NCBI RefSeq assembly: GCF_000017305.1
Contig: NC_009664.2
Location: forward strand, 4,620,001 to 4,652,000
Reading direction: 5' to 3'
DNA from: Kineococcus radiotolerans SRS30216 = ATCC BAA-149
Lineage (GTDB): Bacteria; Actinomycetota; Actinomycetes; Actinomycetales; Kineococcaceae
DNA: 32,000 bases
A program made the translations under genes and the position numbers. Positions 2,427-30,817 of this stretch are shown one piece after another. The notes beneath the pieces were generated by a model that saw only the letters and a list, made by a program, of their open reading frames with translations, was not told the origin of the DNA and did not search any database. Position 1 is the stretch's first letter. Every line of letters begins with the position of its first letter.

Positions 2427-3038
2427 TCAGCGCCGCTGCGCTGCCTCCTCCTCCTGCGGAGTCAGCAGCCACCGCGCGAAGCAGCCGCCATCCACTTCGG
2501 TGTACCAGCGAGCGGTGACCTGGAAGGTGGTGGCCGGCGCCACGGGTAGCCGTAGCCCGGCCGGAGCGTGGGCTGCTTCGGCACCGGTGACCGGGTGCGG
2601 CTTCAGCGTGGGGAACGGGCCTGGCGCCGAGTCGATGATCGGGCCGCTGTGCTCCCCGGTCCCGTCCAGCGCGGCGTTGTAGAGCACCAGCTCTCCGGTG
2701 CAGACGGTGAAAGTGCCCCCGGACTCGTCGTCGTCATCGAGGGGATGCTCCAGAGCGGCCTGCAGCACCGCCCCGTAGTCCTCGCCGGAGGCCTGCACGA
2801 TGCGGATGTGCTGCTGGTCGCAGAAGACCTCCAGCCAGCTCTCGTCGTTGACGGCGCCGTCGGGGGCGATGAGCCCGGCGCTGCCTTCTCCCACGGGGGT
2901 GCTCGTCACGCTCTGGCCCAGGTCGCAGAGGGGCTCGTAGTGGTCGTGGCTGAACCCGGCCCAGGAGGCCAGGTGGGGGGCGTCGAGGGCGAGGTAGATC
3001 TCGCCGTCGCTCCAGAGGCGACCCACGTGCGTCCACAT
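2427..3038 (-). CDS. Immunity-protein-like hypothetical (Imm21-like by recall)
   Basis: ATG at 3038 gives 203 aa, MWTHVGRLWSDGEIYLALDAPHLASWAGF... This is only the 3' third of the 546-aa track ORF; the rest is Arg/Pro-rich shadow sequence. The family call is from memory only. Confidence 0.55.
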   Translation of the reverse strand: MWTHVGRLWSDGEIYLALDAPHLASWAGFSHDHYEPLCDLGQSVTSTPVGEGSAGLIAPDGAVNDESWLEVFCDQQHIRIVQASGEDYGAVLQAALEHPLDDDDESGGTFTVCTGELVLYNAALDGTGEHSGPIIDSAPGPFPTLKPHPVTGAEAAHAPAGLRLPVAPATTFQVTARWYTEVDGGCFARWLLTPQEEEAAQRR

Positions 3039-3204
3039 CGGCTTCGCTCCCTTCGTCGAGGTGCTAGTCGCACCGGCTGCTGCGAACCCAGCCGCCACCC
3101 CAGCACGGCAGCCGGTGTTTGCATGATCTCGCACCTCGATCGACGTGAGGGCGCATGCGCGACCGGTCGTGAGACAGCGAGAGGGCGGCCACTCGTGATC
3201 ACAC

Positions 3205-8372: not shown

Positions 8373-10067
8373 TCACTGCTGAGTATGGTCTCCTGCCGAC
8401 AACCGACGGTGTACGTCCTCCAGGACGGTCCTCGGCTTCTCGTGCCCCAGGGACAAGGCGTCGACGGCTCCCATCACCGCCTCGGCGGGGTCGGGCAGCG
8501 CGGACTGCTGCAGCGCGTCCAGGGCGACCACCTCAGGGGCGTAGGGCTCGTGGACCTCCTCGTCGTCCCAGCTGATGTAGGAGCCGCTGTATTCGACCTG
8601 CTCCTCGTCCTCTTCGTCCCCCTCGTCGGCGGGGAACACCTTCGCCAGCACCTGGTCGGGGTCATTCCACAGCGGCGGCAGCGGCCCGCCGGCGGCGGCA
8701 GCGTGCAAGGCATCCTCGACCCAGTCCCGGCCGGCCAGCCCGGCGAGCGTGCACGCCTGACGGGCCGCCCACACCGCCACCGCGCGCTGCTCGCCGGCCG
8801 GCATGACCGCGAGGGCTTCGGCCAGTTCGCGGTGCCGTCGGCCCACGGACGACGCGCGGCCCCCGACGGCCAGCAACCGTGCGGAGGGCAGCTGCTCACC
8901 GTCCTGCACCCCCCATTCCCGGCACAGGTCGAAGTACTCCTCGGGGTCCATCCCCTCGGGCACCTTCTCGAGCGGGTCCGGTTCGGTGAACGGTGGCCGG
9001 TGGTCCGCGACGTGCCCGACGCCGAACCGCTCGGTCAGTTCTCGCCGCAGACGTGTCAGTTCCTCACGGACCTGCGCCAGGAAGGCGTCCGCGTGCTCCT
9101 GCCCGATCGCCTCGTGAACCTGCTTCAGGGTCGAGACGACCGCGTCCAGGGGGTCGGTGCTGGCCGCCTCCACGATGCTGGACACCGCGTACGCGGTCCG
9201 GCTGCGGGGGTAGCCGTTGACCGCGGACGCCTCACCGTCCGGATCCGGGAGGGAGTCGTCCAGGCGGGCGTACAGGGCGTCGGGGTCGTGGAACAGCGCC
9301 GGTAGCGACCGGTCCTCGCGCAGGCTATGCAGCACCGCGGCGATCCAGTCCACGCGGTCGACGCCGGTCCGGGTGCAGGCCCACTGCGCGGCCCAGTACG
9401 CCACGGCCCGCTGCACGCCGGGTTCGGCCGCTGCCAGGTCCTCAGCCAGGTCGCGGTCCAGCTCGACCAGCCAGGGCGCGTCGAACACGTCCAGCAGCCT
9501 CTGGCTCGGCAGCAGGGTCTCACCCCACGTCGCGGACGTTCGCGCGGCGCGGGCGAAGGCGGGGTCCTGCATCCGGTGGCGATAGCGGGCGGTTTCACTG
9601 CCGACGCGCACGATCGCGTCGGGGGCGGGGGGAGCGGGCCACAGGACCAGTTCGTAGTGGTCCACCAGCGGTTCGTCTGCCATGACGACGTCGGCGTCGC
9701 GGCCGGCGTCGATGCCCTGGGCGCTGAAGCGGGCGCGGTAGCTGGGCTGGTCCAGGTACAGGTCGCACACGGCGTCGGATAGGCACCCGGCCAGGACCGC
9801 CTCGGGCCACTGGGGGGTGAACGTCGTCTCGACGAGGTCCTCCCACTCCGGCCCGACCGGCGGTGGTTCGTCGCACAGCAGGACCCGGAGGCCGACGTCA
9901 CCGGTGTGGACACCGACCAGCAAGGTCAGGTGGCCCAGCAGCTGCCCGCCGGCCAGGCCGTTGACCTGACCGGCGAAAGCGGCTTCGTAGTCGTCGGGGA
10001 CGTCCCCGGCGGACAGGTACGCCTGGAAGTAGGAGACGGCCATCCGCCCCTCGTAGACCAACTGCAC
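8373..10067 (-). CDS. Large hypothetical protein with an internally duplicated helical module
   Basis: 564-aa GC3-rich ORF. Two similar modules contain LPSxRLL...QRAVAxWAAxxACT...DW...LH...LPxLxxDPD. The N-terminal 160 aa are a separate domain. No confident family. Confidence 0.7.
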   Translation of the reverse strand: MQLVYEGRMAVSYFQAYLSAGDVPDDYEAAFAGQVNGLAGGQLLGHLTLLVGVHTGDVGLRVLLCDEPPPVGPEWEDLVETTFTPQWPEAVLAGCLSDAVCDLYLDQPSYRARFSAQGIDAGRDADVVMADEPLVDHYELVLWPAPPAPDAIVRVGSETARYRHRMQDPAFARAARTSATWGETLLPSQRLLDVFDAPWLVELDRDLAEDLAAAEPGVQRAVAYWAAQWACTRTGVDRVDWIAAVLHSLREDRSLPALFHDPDALYARLDDSLPDPDGEASAVNGYPRSRTAYAVSSIVEAASTDPLDAVVSTLKQVHEAIGQEHADAFLAQVREELTRLRRELTERFGVGHVADHRPPFTEPDPLEKVPEGMDPEEYFDLCREWGVQDGEQLPSARLLAVGGRASSVGRRHRELAEALAVMPAGEQRAVAVWAARQACTLAGLAGRDWVEDALHAAAAGGPLPPLWNDPDQVLAKVFPADEGDEEDEEQVEYSGSYISWDDEEVHEPYAPEVVALDALQQSALPDPAEAVMGAVDALSLGHEKPRTVLEDVHRRLSAGDHTQQ

Positions 10068-12164: not shown

Positions 12165-12228
12165 CAGCGAGACCATGACGTCGCGAGCCGCACGCGACAA
12201 CGCACAACGCACAACGCGGGATGACCGG
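12165..12228 (+). repeat. Cassette-boundary repeat 14 (subtype B)
   Basis: Left box gagaccatgacgtc. Then cgcgacaacgcacaacgcacaacgcGGGATGACCgg, core at 12218-12226. The gcacaac unit is repeated. Confidence 0.8.
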
Positions 12229-12297
12229 ACATTCCCCGTGCTGGTCCAGGCGCCGCTTCCCCAGCCGGAGGACGGCTGCCACGGTGGAGGGGTGAGC

Positions 12298-12969
12298 GTG
12301 CACAGCGAGGACTCCTTCCGATCCCGGCCTTTGAACGGCCTCCCGCTGCCGGCCTCGACCGCGGCCGCCGTGGAGTCGTTGCTGTCTCCGCGCGGGCGTC
12401 CTACCCGAGGTCCGGGCGAGCGGGGCCGGCTGGGGCACTTCGAGCCGATCCCGGAAGAAGCCGCAGCTGAGTGGCTGGGCTTCGCCCCGCCCACCTTGCC
12501 CAGCCTGAGCGGGTCCGGGTTCCGTCGGCACTTCGCACGCCAAGGTGGGCGCGACCTCGTCGCGCGGGCGGACCTGACTCGTGGCGAGAGTGCCGCGGTC
12601 TACGTCTTCTACTTGCCGGCGGGCTCGGCGTGGCGGGAGGAGACGAGGTTCGCCGAAGCACGCCGGGAGGGTCTGACGTTCTTGTGGCTGCGGGCGGGGT
12701 ACGGGGTGCCCTGGCCTGAGGAGGAAGGAGGACCGGTGGGAGTGGAGGAGACCGCGACCATTGGTCGTGACCCTGCCAGTGGTGACTTCCTCACGCTGAC
12801 GGTGGGCAGCACCCGGGTCGGGGTCCAGTACCAGCGAGGGGTGACTCGCCTGGCGTGGTCGTACCGTTCCCAGGACGCCGACTTCAACGTCACGGTGATG
12901 AGTGGGCGCTCACCGCGGGCGTCGGTGGAGATGCTGGTGAGCGACCGCGGCGCGCTCTACCTGGGCTGA
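12298..12969 (+). CDS. Hypothetical protein (duplicated cassette, copy B)
   Basis: Paralog of 1030-1701 with a GTG start where copy A has ATG. Only 3 other amino-acid differences appear in the ORF-track translations. Confidence 0.6.
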   Translation: MHSEDSFRSRPLNGLPLPASTAAAVESLLSPRGRPTRGPGERGRLGHFEPIPEEAAAEWLGFAPPTLPSLSGSGFRRHFARQGGRDLVARADLTRGESAAVYVFYLPAGSAWREETRFAEARREGLTFLWLRAGYGVPWPEEEGGPVGVEETATIGRDPASGDFLTLTVGSTRVGVQYQRGVTRLAWSYRSQDADFNVTVMSGRSPRASVEMLVSDRGALYLG

Positions 12970-14718: not shown

Positions 14719-15254
14719 CGCTGTTCGCTGCCCTGGCCGTTGTCTTGGTCGTTGGCCGCTAGGAGGGCGTCGATGTGGGCGGTGACGCGTTCGGCGAAGG
14801 ACCGCTCGCGCAGGGCCGCGCCCAGGTCCTCCACGACCTGCTGCAGCCCGCGGGGGACTTCGGCGTCCAGTTCCGCCCAGGCGGCTTCGGTGGCGCGCCA
14901 CTCCGCCTCCAGGAACGGTACGAGGGCAGCGCCTGCGTCGGTCAGCGTCACCGTGCGGGTGCGGGCGTCGTCACCGGCGGTGCTGTTGGTGAGGCCGGCG
15001 TGGCGCATGGCGGTCACGGTCTGGCTCATGGCCGAGTGCGTCACCCCGACCTGCTGGGCGAGTGCCTTGATGCTCAGGGGTCCGCGGTGGTGTAGGCGGA
15101 TGAGGGCCTTGCTAAACCGTGGTCGTACCCCGTCGATGCCGTGCTGGGTGTAGACGGCGGCGATCTGGTCGTCCATCCCGGCGAGCAGGTCCTGCAGTGG
15201 GCGCAGCCTGTTCAGTTCGGTGGGGTCACCGTTACGGATCTCATCGGATGTCAC
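14715..15254 (-). CDS. MarR-family transcriptional regulator
   Basis: Winged-HTH segment LIRLHHRGPLSIKALAQQVGVTHSAMSQTVTAMRHAGL. GTG at 15254 is preferred because 15255-15290 is low-GC and looks non-coding. Translationally coupled to the MFS gene. Confidence 0.8.
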   Translation of the reverse strand: MTSDEIRNGDPTELNRLRPLQDLLAGMDDQIAAVYTQHGIDGVRPRFSKALIRLHHRGPLSIKALAQQVGVTHSAMSQTVTAMRHAGLTNSTAGDDARTRTVTLTDAGAALVPFLEAEWRATEAAWAELDAEVPRGLQQVVEDLGAALRERSFAERVTAHIDALLAANDQDNGQGSEQR

Positions 15255-15283
15255 AGCGCTAACGTAACAGTCCTCATGTGAAA

Positions 15284-15365
15284 TGGTCACGTCCCGCTCA
15301 TCGGCATGTCCACGAAGTCGTCAGCCGCCGCACGCCGCCCGGATCGTGGGATGATCGGGAAGTTG
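15284..15365 (+). repeat. Cassette-boundary repeat 17 (variant core)
   Basis: Sequence tggtcacgtcccgctcatcggcatgtccacgaagtcg...cgccgcccggatcgtGGGATGATCgggaagttg, core at 15348-15356. Confidence 0.7.
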
Positions 15366-26495: not shown

Positions 26496-27053
26496 TCAGG
26501 CCTTCTTGGCGACCCGACGGGTGGTGGTCTTGGCCGGGGCCGACTTGCTAGCAGCAGCCGTGGTGCGAGTCGTCGGAGCTGCCTTCTTCGCCGCAGCCGT
26601 CGTACGAGCCGGGGCGCTCTTGGCGGCGGTCTTCGTCGCAGCCGTTCCCGCAGCACTGGTGGTTCGTGTACCCGACGCCGTGCGGGCCGGGGTCGTCGTC
26701 TTGGCGGCGGCCGTCTTCGCGGCAGGTGCGGTGCCGGTGGCCTTGGCCTTCAGCTCCGCCTGGTAGGCGCGCAGGGCCTTGGTGTCGGAGACGACTTCTT
26801 TAAAGGCGGTGCCGGGGCGGAAGCGCGGCACGGAGGTCTTCTTGATCTTGACGGCTTCGCCGGTGCGGGGGTTGCGCCCGGTGCGGGCGTTGCGGACCTG
26901 CTTCTCGAAGGTGCCGAACCCACTGATGGCGATCTTGTCGCCCTTGGCGACGGTGAGCTGGATGAGCTCGATGACCGCCTCCACAGCGGTGGTGGCTTCC
27001 TTGCGGCCGCCGAGACGTGTCTCGAGGGCGTCGACCATCTCTGCCTTGTTCAC
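26496..27053 (-). CDS. hup: HU-family histone-like DNA-binding protein with a long Ala/Lys/Thr-rich C-terminal tail (Hlp/HupB/HupS type)
   Basis: The N-terminal 90 aa (MNKAEMVDALE...GFGTFEKQVRNARTGRNPRTGEAVKIKKTSVPRFRPGTAFK) form a canonical HU fold. The tail has AAKK/TTAAK repeats. GGAGGA precedes the ATG. Confidence 0.9.
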   Translation of the reverse strand: MNKAEMVDALETRLGGRKEATTAVEAVIELIQLTVAKGDKIAISGFGTFEKQVRNARTGRNPRTGEAVKIKKTSVPRFRPGTAFKEVVSDTKALRAYQAELKAKATGTAPAAKTAAAKTTTPARTASGTRTTSAAGTAATKTAAKSAPARTTAAAKKAAPTTRTTAAASKSAPAKTTTRRVAKKA

Positions 27054-27386
27054 GGGGGTTCCTCCTGCAGGTGGGGGGTGGGACCGGGTCGTTCGGGTCG
27101 TCGGGAGTTGGGCAGGAGCCCGACAGGGGAGACGGTACGACTGTTGATCACTTCCCCGTCATAGGAGGGCCTCACCGGCGTGGCGCGGAGTCGTTGCGAC
27201 ACAGACTGCCTGGCCTCGTAGCGCAACCCCAACGCCTGCAGGACAGTCTTTTTCGAGGGGCTGCCCTCGTGCACTGGCTGTGGGCTGCCCCTTATCCATC
27301 CGTCCATGACGCACGACCACGGACCCGGTGAAGCCACCGCATACCGGAATGGGCTGTCAGGTGAGCATCGACCTTGCCACAAGTCG

Positions 27387-27494
27387 GCCCATGACTCAGC
27401 CCGTGACCCAGCCCGTGACCCAGCTCGTGACCCAGCCCGTGACCCAGCTCGTGACCCAGCCCATCACCCGGCCCGTGACCCAGCCCATCACCCG
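27387..27494 (+). repeat. 9 x 12-bp tandem direct repeat in the origin region
   Basis: Units gcccgtgaccca, gctcgtgaccca and gcccatcacccg lie head to tail. They fall in non-coding DNA between hup and repA. The track ORF reading VTQPVTQL is judged non-coding. Confidence 0.8.
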
Positions 27495-27654
27495 GTCCGG
27501 CCCCGGCCTCCCCAATGGGCCCGCAGCCGGCTCAAAGCCGGCCCCAAAGTCACCCCGCGACGCATGCCGCCTCATCGCCGCCAGCTGCCGCGCTCGCAGT
27601 GACCCGTGCCGTCCGCGAGCTGTACCCAGCGCTCGATGTTCACAGTTGGCGCTG

Positions 27655-27700
27655 ACGACTACAGGTAAAGATGTACAGGAAGAAGCTACAGGGGGACCCA
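27655..27700. other. Lowest-GC patch of the window with 3 x TACAGG (candidate unwinding or architectural-protein site)
   Basis: Sequence ctacaggtaaagatgtacaggaagaagctacaggggg. TACAGG occurs at 27660, 27674 and 27687. Confidence 0.4.
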
Positions 27701-27736
27701 CCCACACCGCCGCTGACCTGCGACGATGCTCATGGG

Positions 27737-27823
27737 GGCGGCGCCAAAAATACGTAACGGCGGCGCCAGAAATACGTACCCTCCCGCACAAGCACCCCAC
27801 CCCAGGCGGCGCCAGAAATACGT
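27737..27823 (+). promoter_or_regulatory. Three 19-bp iterons upstream of repA
   Basis: ggcggcgccaRaaatacgt occurs at 27737-27755, 27759-27777 and 27805-27823 in direct orientation, about 350-440 bp upstream of the repA start. Confidence 0.75.
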
Positions 27824-28175
27824 GGACCGCTCCCACCGTCCACCCCCACCTGTGGACACCCACGAGCCCCTCAGCCCGCCCACCAGCACCCCCTCAGCGC
27901 ATCCGTCCCCAGGCTCACCACGGCGCTCGCGAACGCCCGCACCAAGGTCGAGTACCGGTCTGCGATCGCTGTCCTCACCAGGTGAGGACCAAGGCGTGGT
28001 CAGGGCGTAGGCAGGGCGTAGAGAGAGCTGGCTAGGCCGAGCCACCACCCTGACGCCTGGATGGGTGGGCACACATGGGCTTCTCGTCGGGTGTCTCGTA
28101 TGGGGCAGCGGTCGCGCGTCAACACGCTTCCCGCTGGTGCGTGACCAGCAGGCGCCCACGTGGAAGGCTGATGTC

Positions 28176-29252
28176 GTGACCTCCCGGCCTGGTCGGCCTC
28201 CACGCGACGACCTCGCCTGGCTCGATGAGGCCGCCCAGCTGTGGGACCAGGCCCACGCCGACATCGGCTACCTCGCCCGCGTCTTCGCCCAGACGTCTCT
28301 GCCTTACCGCGACCCCGGGGACCTGCCCGTGTGGCAGCGCCGCAACGGTGGCCTCACCCTCACTCTGCAGCCCAATGTTTCGCTGCTGGACCCGGACGGG
28401 GTGTAGGAGTTGATCGGCTACCCCTACAGGACCCTGCCGCGGTCGCTGCTGGCGTGGCTGACGACGGAGGCGGTGCGGACGAAGAGCCGCACCATCCCGC
28501 TGGGGGAGTCCCTCAGCGACTTCTGCCGGCAGTTGGAGCTGCCCATCACCGGGCTGCAGATCCGCCGGCTGAAGGACCAGGCCCGGCGGTTGTTCAACGC
28601 CCGCCTCTCCGTGCACTACGTCGAGCACCTCGACATCAGTACAGAGACCGACCCGTCCCCGCGAGGACAGCGTCGTCAGGTGCGTCAGGAGGCGGGGCAG
28701 AACCTGCTCATCGCGTCTCGCTACGAGCTGTGGACCACCACCCAGCGCAACGCCAAAACCGCCGACCCTGTCGAGGCTGCTGGGCCAGCCGGCAAGCCGG
28801 CCACCCGGCAAGGCGCCAAGGCCGCCGCCCCGCGAGGTGCGAAGCAGACGGCGGTAGCGGCCGAGGTGGCACTGCCCTCCAGCGTCACCCTCAGCGCGGA
28901 GCTGTACGAGGAAGTCACCCACCGCCCCGTCCCCGTCGACATCGGCGCGCTGCGGCTGCTGCGCGGCTCCCCGTTGCGCTTGGACGTGTACACGTGGCTG
29001 ACGTACCGGATGAGCTACCTGCGCAAGCCCGTGGTCGTCACCTGGGAGCAGCTGCGGTTCCAGTTCGGCACCCAGGTGTCCACCCCGCGTGGCTACCGCC
29101 ACTTCCGCGCTGACTTCTCCGAGGCCCTGCGGTGGGTGCTGGCCATCTACCGGGAGGCGAAGGTCGATGAGGTCGCCAACGGCATCCGCCTGCGACCCTC
29201 TCCTCCGCACGTGGGTCGTGGCAAGCGGCCGGCGCTCAACCAGCGCACCTGA
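28176..29252 (+). pseudogene. repA: Plasmid replication initiator RepA (RepA_C family) interrupted by an in-frame TAG
   Basis: The upstream part (...YLARVFAQTSLPYRDPG...LTLQPNVSLLDPDGV) and the downstream part (LIGYPYRTLPRSLLAWLTTEAVRTKSRTIPLGESLSDF...LDVYTWLTYRMSYL) are in the same frame. TAG lies at 28404-28406. GTG at 28176 follows GGAAGG. Confidence 0.75.
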
Positions 29253-29388
29253 GCACCTGAGCACCTGAACCCCTCGAGCAGAGTCACGGCCCGCTGTCGT
29301 GGCCCACCCCGGCCTCACACAAGCGCCAGAGCAGAGGCGACCAGGGACCATGCTCCTGCTTCGCCCCACGGCAACGCCGCGATAACAC

Positions 29389-29436
29389 GGCCGGCGGGAC
29401 GGCCGGCGGGACGGTCGGCGGGACGGTCGCCGCGGG
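29389..29436 (+). repeat. About 4 x 12-bp tandem repeat downstream of repA
   Basis: Units ggccggcgggac, ggccggcgggac, ggtcggcgggac and ggtcgccgcggg. Confidence 0.65.
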
Positions 29437-30496: not shown

Positions 30497-30817
30497 GTGG
30501 CCGGGGTGGAACTGCGCTATGAGGAGTTTGCCGCCGCTCGCGGACTGGCGCTGTAACGCCTGGCCCGCGGCCTGCTGCGTAATCCCTCCGACGCCGAAGG
30601 CGTCACCCAGCGCTTCCCTGGCCGCGACGCGCTGCTCGCCGCGGTGCGCACGCTGCCGACCAAGCAGCGCTCGGTGGTCGCCCTGCGCTACCTCGACGAG
30701 ATGGACGACGAGCGCATCGCCGACATCCTCGACATGACCACCGGTGCGGTGCGCGTCAACGCCAGCCGCGGGCTGGCGACCCTGCGCGCGGCCATGAAGC
30801 TTCCCGCACCCGTCTGA
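30497..30817 (+). pseudogene. Remnant of a SigE-family sigma factor (in-frame TAA and internal deletion)
   Basis: The frame reads ELRYEEFAAARGLAL, TAA at 30554-30556, RLARGLLRNPSDAEGVTQ, then directly region 4 (LPTKQRSVVALRYLDEMDDERIADILDMTTGAVRVNASRGLATLR). Most of regions 2-3 is absent. Confidence 0.55.

Follow-up and report, generated by a model that had tools for sequence, protein, structure and literature searches.

We analyzed a window of 32,000 nucleotides (nt) from Kineococcus radiotolerans SRS30216 (contig NC_009664.2, positions 4,620,001 to 4,652,000; coordinates below count from the first letter of the window). Near its right end, a gene for an HU-family DNA-binding protein (hup), a noncoding region with direct repeats (oriV), and a gene for a plasmid-type replication initiator (repA) lie side by side. 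We consider it probable, at approximately 70%, that the segment from 26.5 to 29.3 kb is an inactivated chromosomal relic of the hup-oriV-repA basic replicon of a Kineococcus plasmid family. A first-pass annotation had concluded that the gene cassette array next to this module sits on a plasmid, a secondary replicon, or an integrated plasmid remnant. A plasmid or secondary replicon is not borne out: the region is chromosomal, repA contains a nonsense codon, no ParA was found in the window, and the array repeat is missing from the related loci. The integrated remnant, its third alternative, is the only one of those options that fits. The locus is an ordinary kind of feature.

The origin core is conserved among Kineococcus replicons

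The 1.12 kb from the hup start codon (27053) to the repA GTG (28176) shows no frame-specific G+C content at third codon positions (GC3) and has, in other words, no coding signal. When the window was aligned with the corresponding origins of Kineococcus gypseus, Kineococcus aurantiacus, and a metagenome contig (L009), the conserved part of this noncoding DNA proved to be a core of about 230 bp with a mean column identity of 79%. The DNA flanking the core does not align among these origins. The core opens with a DnaA-box-like 9-mer, ATGTTCACA, on the plus strand at 27636 to 27644, which matches TTRTNCACA at eight of nine positions and whose CACAG core is invariant in position in all four origins. 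It forms the left flank of an AT-rich patch (27657 to 27695, plus strand) with the 16-mer GACTACAGGTAAAGAT and three copies of TACAGG (27660 to 27665, 27674 to 27679, and 27687 to 27692). The 16-mer is invariant in the loci L002, L007, and L009. The first-pass annotation had placed the three TACAGG copies in the lowest-GC patch of the window; they are indeed there, and the 50 nt from 27635 to 27684, which overlap the patch, have a G+C content of 46%, a window minimum held jointly with 15238 to 15287. As a single strand, the patch folds worse than 199 of 200 shuffled sequences (z = +2.2), and such weak self-structure would agree with an easily opened region. On the grounds of low G+C content, conservation, and weak folding, we presume it to be the DNA-unwinding element.

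To the right of the patch, a spacer motif, CTGACCTGC...GATGC (27713 to 27729, plus strand), has invariant columns in the four-way alignment and leads to three exact plus-strand copies of the 19-bp iteron GGCGGCGCCARAAATACGT, the presumed RepA binding sites. The copies lie at 27737 to 27755, 27759 to 27777, and 27805 to 27823, spanning 27737 to 27823 exactly as first annotated, with start-to-start spacings of 22 and 46 bp. The same iteron sequence and the same spacing recur in K. gypseus, K. aurantiacus, and L009. The core closes with TCCACC and a second DnaA-box-like 9-mer in inverted orientation (GTGTCCACA on the minus strand, 27851 to 27859), again an eight-of-nine match, at which CTGTG.A.AC is kept in all four origins. 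DnaA-box-like 9-mers are not enriched across the window (11 found, 12.3 expected); the two in the core are conserved in position in four origins. No further match to GGCGGCGCCARAAATACGT within three mismatches exists in the 32 kb, and none of 100 shuffled sequences contained any match. Iteron-type origins have three or more direct repeats of 17 to 22 bp in helical phase next to a rep gene and an A+T-rich neighbor; the three 19-mers and the patch of 46% G+C conform to this. Iteron sequence, iteron spacing, and the AT-rich patch have been conserved over a synonymous divergence (dS) of approximately 0.5.

The origin region had no match by blastn, in distant mode, against 72,556 plasmids. Matches to GACTACAGGTAAAGAT in a metagenome scan (at least 120) were set aside as chance, as none was accompanied by an iteron and a 16-mer is too short for a collection of that size. 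A scan of 26.9 to 29.7 kb for sigma-70 promoters found none, and the single terminator-like site was at chance level. An inverted half-iteron operator was not found at the repA promoter.

A RepA_C-family initiator and an extra hup gene adjoin the core

The repA gene consists of two parts in the same frame. The N-terminal part (28176 to 28403, plus strand, GC3 of 0.86) has 76 codons, a GTG start, and a GGAAGG ribosome-binding motif at 28162 to 28167. The C-terminal part (28407 to 29252, plus strand, GC3 of 0.90) encodes 280 amino acids from a TTG at 28410, among them the RepA_C domain as well as a linker that is disordered and Ala/Lys rich. The first-pass assignment to RepA_C holds up against the profile hidden Markov model (HMM): the open reading frame (ORF) from 28410 to 29249 matches PF04796 with an E value of 4.9e-14 and 53.4 bits, the Pfam gathering cutoff being 26, and the joined translation gives the same match. 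No NCBIfam model matches RepA. By tblastn, 1072 plasmid records carry genes homologous to repA, and 681 of these records cover at least 80% of the query. The best plasmid-encoded RepA, from Pseudonocardia, is 46% identical (E = 2e-76) over residues 9 to 346 of 358 of the joined translation, across the stop, so that the homology to plasmid initiators is collinear and full length.

The closest full-length RepA is that of K. gypseus (P0001), which is intact, 80% identical, and encoded on a 95.9-kb contig; the C-terminal part of the window protein is 79% identical to it in amino acid sequence. The window N terminus shows 87 to 88% amino acid identity to the RepA N termini of K. gypseus and K. aurantiacus. 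Other homologs are found in K. aurantiacus (on a 174.6-kb contig), in Kineococcus vitellinus, and on L009, whose intact allele differs from the window over codons 1 to 59 by 10 synonymous and no nonsynonymous changes. Nucleotide homology between the window and the related loci is limited to 27656 to 29252, extending in L009 also to hup and its promoter.

A sequence search of RepA against Protein Data Bank (PDB) chains gave no match, and its likely fold comes from an AlphaFold2 model of the K. gypseus RepA, built with 115 homologs (predicted local distance difference test score [pLDDT] of 85; predicted template modeling score [pTM] of 0.80). The best structural matches by Foldseek were domains 2 and 3 of RctB (5tbf and 5ubf; E = 2e-6 to 9e-6), and RepE54 was matched with a probability of 0.98 to 0.99. 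The model thus points to the two-winged-helix (WH1-WH2) fold of iteron initiators for the K. gypseus protein and, by homology, we infer the same fold for the window protein. Taken together, the conserved core and spacing, the plasmid-borne repA homologs, and the predicted RctB/RepE-like fold uphold the first-pass reading of an iteron-type origin with a RepA_C initiator, and we regard the identification of the 27.7-kb locus as an iteron-type theta origin with its initiator as well supported.

On the other side of the core, the hup gene (26496 to 27053, minus strand) is transcribed away from the origin and encodes a 185-amino-acid HU-family protein with an Ala/Lys/Thr-rich tail (PF00216, E = 6.5e-27). 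The canonical HU of K. radiotolerans (P0128) is encoded separately on the same 4.76-Mb chromosome, and the window hup is therefore an extra copy. L009 has the same hup-ori-repA layout, with an HU protein of 91% amino acid identity, and the repA contig of K. vitellinus also encodes an HU protein. L009 thus keeps hup beside the origin, and the relic is accordingly made up of hup, oriV, and repA, with hup as a part of the plasmid backbone.

Two observations concern the K. aurantiacus contig. At 9795 to 9815 of this locus (L007), a 1-nt deletion in a run of C splits repA into ORFs of 262 and 120 amino acids; either the gene has been inactivated independently a second time, or the homopolymer was misread in sequencing. 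Central-metabolism genes (for PPDK, GAPDH, and adenylate kinase) lie beside repA on the same contig.

The module lies in the main linear chromosome

The products of the window repA (P0002) and hup (P0121) are each recorded on a single contig of 4,761,183 bp. The linear chromosome of strain SRS30216, CP000750, has exactly this length; the plasmids of the strain measure 182,572 bp and 12,917 bp (PMC2587704). The region is therefore chromosomal, and the replicon check that the first-pass annotation had proposed leads to the main linear chromosome and not to a replicon separate from it. The published restriction map of the chromosome ends agrees with neither end of the window, which does not lie at a chromosome end. 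The G+C content of the window is 0.67 to 0.73, averaging approximately 70%, and is below the genome mean of 74.2% (PMC2587704), as expected of acquired DNA.

The first-pass annotation had also suggested looking for parAB. No such genes turned up in the window: tblastn with ParA in all frames gave no match at E < 1 (none below E = 1.7), and Pfam scans of about 40 window ORFs found no ParA or ParB domains. The window contains no tRNA and hence no suppressor tRNA. No integrase, attachment (att) site, tRNA, or insertion sequence (IS) was found at the borders within the window, and transfer genes were likewise not found there.

GC skew, another of the proposed checks, does not have the polarity of an origin. 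In the 32-kb profile, the skew is steadily positive (approximately +0.03 to +0.2) over most of the cassette array (1 to 26500) and negative from about 27 kb on, and the cumulative skew reaches its maximum at the hup/ori boundary. Under the convention of a G-rich leading strand, a change from plus to minus near 27 kb has terminus polarity. The probable sources of the switch are the array, which runs in one direction, and the top strand of the origin, which is C rich, rather than replication. For the chromosome as a whole, the genome paper describes the central dnaA locus as lacking an obvious GC skew and the ends as having a "remarkable" one, with clusters of DnaA boxes at least 94 kb from dnaA (PMC2587704). 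The replication origin of this chromosome has apparently not been located so far.

A nonsense codon interrupts repA

The repA frame is split by an in-frame TAG at codon 77 (28404 to 28406, plus strand), which the first-pass annotation had not seen. The relatives have a sense codon at this position, TGG (Trp) in L009 and K. aurantiacus and GTC in K. gypseus, and TAG differs from TGG by a single G-to-A change. The K. radiotolerans genome was finished to less than 1 error per 100,000 bases (PMC2587704), and the same TAG occurs in contigs of a second chromosomal copy of repA (copy B, described below) from independent data sets and read sets; for both reasons, it is not a sequencing error. The 80 nt around the stop (28365 to 28445) differ by 25 to 33% from every intact allele, against 6 to 14% in the neighboring segments, and are almost identical (0 to 1 difference) in the two chromosomal copies, which suggests a shared local mutational or recombination event. 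Codons 60 to 95 contain 13 nonsynonymous changes, one of which replaces with Ser a Leu of the PRLLL motif that is near invariant in the family alignment.

The frame is thus neither uninterrupted nor complete in family-invariant residues. The 76 residues before the TAG, which hold the family-invariant P49, W59, and G64, map in the structural model onto the start of the N-terminal domain, with its first helix and strands. With a TAG at codon 77 and substitutions nearby, no full-length initiator should be made, and the origin should therefore be silent; we conclude that it is probably not active. Among the best 120 matches, there was no other full-length RepA_C protein of this genome, the only other copy being truncated as well.

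A mechanism can be proposed by analogy with F, R6K, pPS10, and Vibrio chromosome 2. In the functional form of the replicon, RepA monomers would bind the three phased 19-bp iterons, and host DnaA at the two flanking DnaA-box-like sites would cooperate with RepA, probably with the help of the adjacently encoded HU. RepA and DnaA would together melt the neighboring AT-rich TACAGG patch, and theta replication would start from the melted patch. In the present genome, the change from TGG to TAG at codon 77 and the substituted near-invariant residues would leave the initiator cut and the origin silent, presumably after an integration event that brought the replicon into the chromosome. If a related plasmid entered the cell, its RepA could still be bound by the iterons in the chromosome.

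A second repA copy and the alternative readings

The same chromosome carries a second RepA_C gene, copy B (P0241; ABS04027.1, 290 amino acids), which RefSeq names "replication protein RepA" and which is represented by the loci L130, L131, and L006. Copy B starts at the same MIGYPYR and has the same TAG patch, with about 55 nt kept upstream of the TAG in addition to the C-terminal frame; the origin and the N-terminal 58 codons are missing. Upstream of it lie genes for a DUF87 protein (700 amino acids), a 515-amino-acid protein of no assigned family, and an AAA_23/SMC_N ATPase (829 amino acids), and these genes may represent a defense-type cluster. Downstream is a small-ORF/Lsr2-like gene, as is found 3' of repA on the K. 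gypseus plasmid contig.

Several features of the two copies weigh against a simple relic and have to be set beside a different account, in which the TAG-bearing repA has been domesticated. It would then be expressed as two polypeptides, one ending at the TAG and one re-initiating at the TTG at 28410, or as the 280-amino-acid C-terminal fragment alone. That fragment would keep the iteron-binding winged helix and would work with the iterons in the chromosome to confer incompatibility with, or exclusion of, incoming plasmids of the family, or would serve as a regulator. Two TAG-bearing copies are found in one chromosome (the window and P0241), and in both the frame after the TAG is open across at least four samples, with only in-frame indels (12 and 42 nt). 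In the folded domains after the stop, the copies differ by 22 synonymous and 4 nonsynonymous changes, a ratio of nonsynonymous to synonymous change (pN/pS) of 0.067 (P = 1e-9 versus neutral), compared with 0.65 in the disordered linker. At face value, this suggests that the C-terminal product is constrained; such a pattern would be surprising in a long-dead pseudogene. The N-terminal part is free of nonsynonymous change relative to the intact L009 allele over codons 1 to 59. A TTG follows 3 nt after the stop, and an AGGAG motif overlaps the stop, so that repA may be expressed in two pieces; an intact trans-acting RepA may also exist elsewhere in the genome below the sensitivity of the search. 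The reduction of copy B to about 55 nt before the TAG plus the C-terminal frame, beside the DUF87 and AAA_23/SMC_N ATPase genes, and a window origin core as conserved as in replicons with intact repA also speak for domestication. However, the divergence between the copies is mosaic. The segments 28365 to 28750 and 28875 to 29075 differ by at most 3%, whereas divergence over the last 174 nt is 11%, the level seen between species, and outside this tract there are only 9 differences. Recombination with functional plasmid alleles may therefore be the source of the synonymous excess, which need not stem from selection on these copies, and we rejected the dN/dS ratio between them as conclusive evidence of function. 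Moreover, open frames can persist by chance at 70% G+C, the fragment lacks the family-invariant residues, the AGGAG abuts the TTG with zero spacing and makes a poor ribosome-binding site, and the product is putative. We therefore judge domestication unlikely, although it is the most probable of the alternatives. Its specific form as a chromosomal anti-plasmid or incompatibility device, in which the TAG-split repA and the iterons are retained and a truncated or two-piece Rep binds the iterons of an incoming plasmid and blocks its replication, is more doubtful still, and a variant in which the relic origin aids replication of a linear chromosome whose oriC has no GC-skew signature is less likely again.

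The inactivated relic is also to be preferred over two further accounts. The main reading of the first-pass annotation, an active secondary origin on a plasmid, on a chromid, or as a second chromosomal origin, would now require read-through of the stop or RepA supplied in trans. The complete and conserved architecture, the undamaged N-terminal part of the RepA protein, the lack of obvious skew at dnaA together with strong skew near the chromosome ends (PMC2587704), and the local change in the sign of the skew near 27 kb could all be cited for it. Against it stands what was found at the locus itself: it lies in the 4.76-Mb chromosome; its repA has a nonsense codon; no suppressor tRNA, indeed no tRNA of any kind, and no ParA are present in the window; the best 120 matches include no other full-length RepA_C of this genome, and the second copy is truncated; and the skew runs from plus to minus, the polarity of a terminus, at the very point where the one-directional cassette array ends. 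An active origin is accordingly very improbable. That the locus was never an origin, its repeats being operators of hup or repA or chance tandem repeats in G+C-rich noncoding DNA, is scarcely credible. Tandem repeats are common in the window, where Tandem Repeats Finder (TRF) reports 60 rows, several of those at the locus are not conserved, and DnaA-box-like sites are not enriched, but the iterons, spacing, and AT-rich patch are kept over a dS of about 0.5 while the flanking noncoding DNA is not, the layout is that of iteron replicons, and a RepA_C plasmid of Pseudonocardia also has iterons 5' of its repA.

Tandem repeats outside the core

The first-pass annotation had counted five repeat sets toward the origin. 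Only the TACAGG patch and the 19-mers stand as origin elements; the other three sets are present in the sequence and are not conserved. The nine head-to-tail copies of the 12-mer GCCCGTGACCCA (27387 to 27494, plus strand) have the highest TRF score of the window (151; 8.3 copies, 86% matches). Neither K. gypseus nor K. aurantiacus has anything comparable. L009 has, at the equivalent position, three copies of an 11-mer, CAGTGGCCCGG, which shares 8 of 11 bases with the window unit, and the two regions do not align by blastn. The stop codon of repA lies in the first of three plus-strand copies of GCACCTGA (29245 to 29268), a nonconserved microsatellite; there is no repeat at the repA stop in K. 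gypseus or K. aurantiacus, and copy B carries a different one there, 4.5 copies of the 13-mer GACGCACGYGGCT. Homology between the window and the related loci stops at 29252 to 29259. In the spacer 3' of repA, where approximately four 12-bp copies had been annotated, TRF finds about 3.3 copies of ACGGCCGGCGGG (29387 to 29426, within a feature extending to 29436, plus strand), which are not common to the relatives. All three of these sets are best interpreted as unstable, variable tandem repeats and not as conserved origin elements.

Two other roles for the 12-mers were considered. A coding role was rejected: the ORF with a PVTQ repeat (27328 to 28035) to which they would belong has no frame-specific GC3 beyond the repeat, no Pfam match, and no conservation. 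A role as a centromere is conjectural, since no partition protein was found and the sequence and length of the unit differ between close relatives. A cis-acting role tied to hup may be considered, since K. vitellinus also has a 13-mer array immediately upstream of its HU gene: at 2688 to 3123 of the K. vitellinus repA contig (L005), 3.8 copies of the 13-mer GATCGTGCAGCTT stand just 5' of the start of an HU-family gene. An HU gene preceded by tandem repeats may be an accessory that recurs in this Kineococcus replicon family.

Comparison with known replicons

The window repA resembles the RepA_C (PF04796) initiators of plasmids from Pseudonocardia, Nocardia, Micrococcus, and Curtobacterium and of many proteobacterial plasmids (Ralstonia, Xanthomonas, Klebsiella, and Escherichia), which RefSeq lists under the name "replication protein RepA," scoring above the HMM gathering cutoff and showing 35 to 46% identity over more than 90% of its length. 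In the Pseudonocardia plasmid pLS2-1, as here, about 1 kb of noncoding DNA with direct repeats precedes repA; the 1.2 kb upstream of repA in pLS2-1 contains eleven iterons, with a ParA gene beyond. Unlike pLS2-1, the window has no ParA gene adjoining repA, and unlike the RepA_C plasmids in general, its repA is chromosomal, interrupted by TAG, and extended by a disordered Ala/Lys-rich linker of about 55 amino acids between the two domains.

The better-studied iteron plasmids F (RepE/ori2), R6K (pi), pPS10 (RepA), and P1 likewise have a two-winged-helix initiator, a rep gene that adjoins the origin, phased direct repeats of about 19 bp by an AT-rich patch, and flanking DnaA-box-like sites. The window differs from them in having only three iterons and no detected inverted half-iteron operator at the repA promoter, in a 70% G+C background against which the "AT-rich" patch is just 46% G+C, and in a RepA protein with no detectable sequence similarity to any solved structure. 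The best structural match was to RctB, the plasmid-derived initiator of the RctB/ori2 system that drives the secondary chromosome (chromosome 2) of Vibrio cholerae, and RctB is similarly a plasmid-type initiator associated with a chromosome. However, RctB is an intact, essential protein, and the replicon that it drives is a separate one equipped with parAB genes of its own, whereas the window RepA is truncated, lies in the main chromosome, and is not accompanied by partition genes.

F or R1 integrated in Escherichia coli forms plasmid-chromosome cointegrates that have been used for integrative suppression. As in such integrated plasmids, a basic replicon lies inside a chromosome, here in a window of G+C content below the genome average. 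Unlike in the F and R1 cointegrates, the initiator is inactivated, so that integrative suppression is not expected, and no integrase, att site, tRNA, or IS element was found at the borders in the window.

The neighboring cassette array

The array repeat GCGGGATGACCG occurs in 29 copies with at most one mismatch, all on the plus strand between 460 and 23926 and 0.3 to 3 kb apart, where 0.6 would be expected by chance. A short hairpin stands in front of each copy; its stem varies among the copies yet stays complementary (CGCG/CGCG, CCCG/CGGG, CGCGC/GCGCG). The genes between the repeats encode APH kinases, DUF2716, MFS, MOSC, GrpB, NUDIX, and DMP19 proteins, and an ECF sigma factor. The array ends 3.5 kb before the replicon module, and GCGGGATGACCG is absent from all 9 related loci examined; array and plasmid backbone are linked by proximity alone. 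With a hairpin that leads into GGGATxAACCG, the array unit resembles a CRISPR type I-E repeat, but what it separates are whole genes. A 300-nt direct duplication of 99% identity (940 to 1239 and 12208 to 12507) lies inside the array, its copies 11.3 kb apart.

On the other side of the module, a short ORF (30557 to 30817; 57 to 86 amino acids) encodes sigma-70 region 4 only, with no room upstream for region 2. It follows a gene for a 273-amino-acid protein that has a membrane-spanning segment and no Pfam match. The short ORF may encode a fragment of a sigma factor or an independent helix-turn-helix protein.

Implications

These results correct the context of the cassette array, which is chromosomal rather than plasmid borne and is unlinked to this replicon in relatives. 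They also define the minimal replicon of a Kineococcus plasmid family: an oriV core of 230 bp that contains the three 19-bp iterons, with hup on one side and repA on the other. Given an intact repA allele, this replicon could serve for vectors in these radiation-resistant actinomycetes. In K. radiotolerans itself, the module documents traffic from plasmid to chromosome, in a genome of which neither the linear chromosome nor the origin is well understood. If the TAG-bearing fragments do prove functional, they would represent a replication initiator domesticated for plasmid exclusion.

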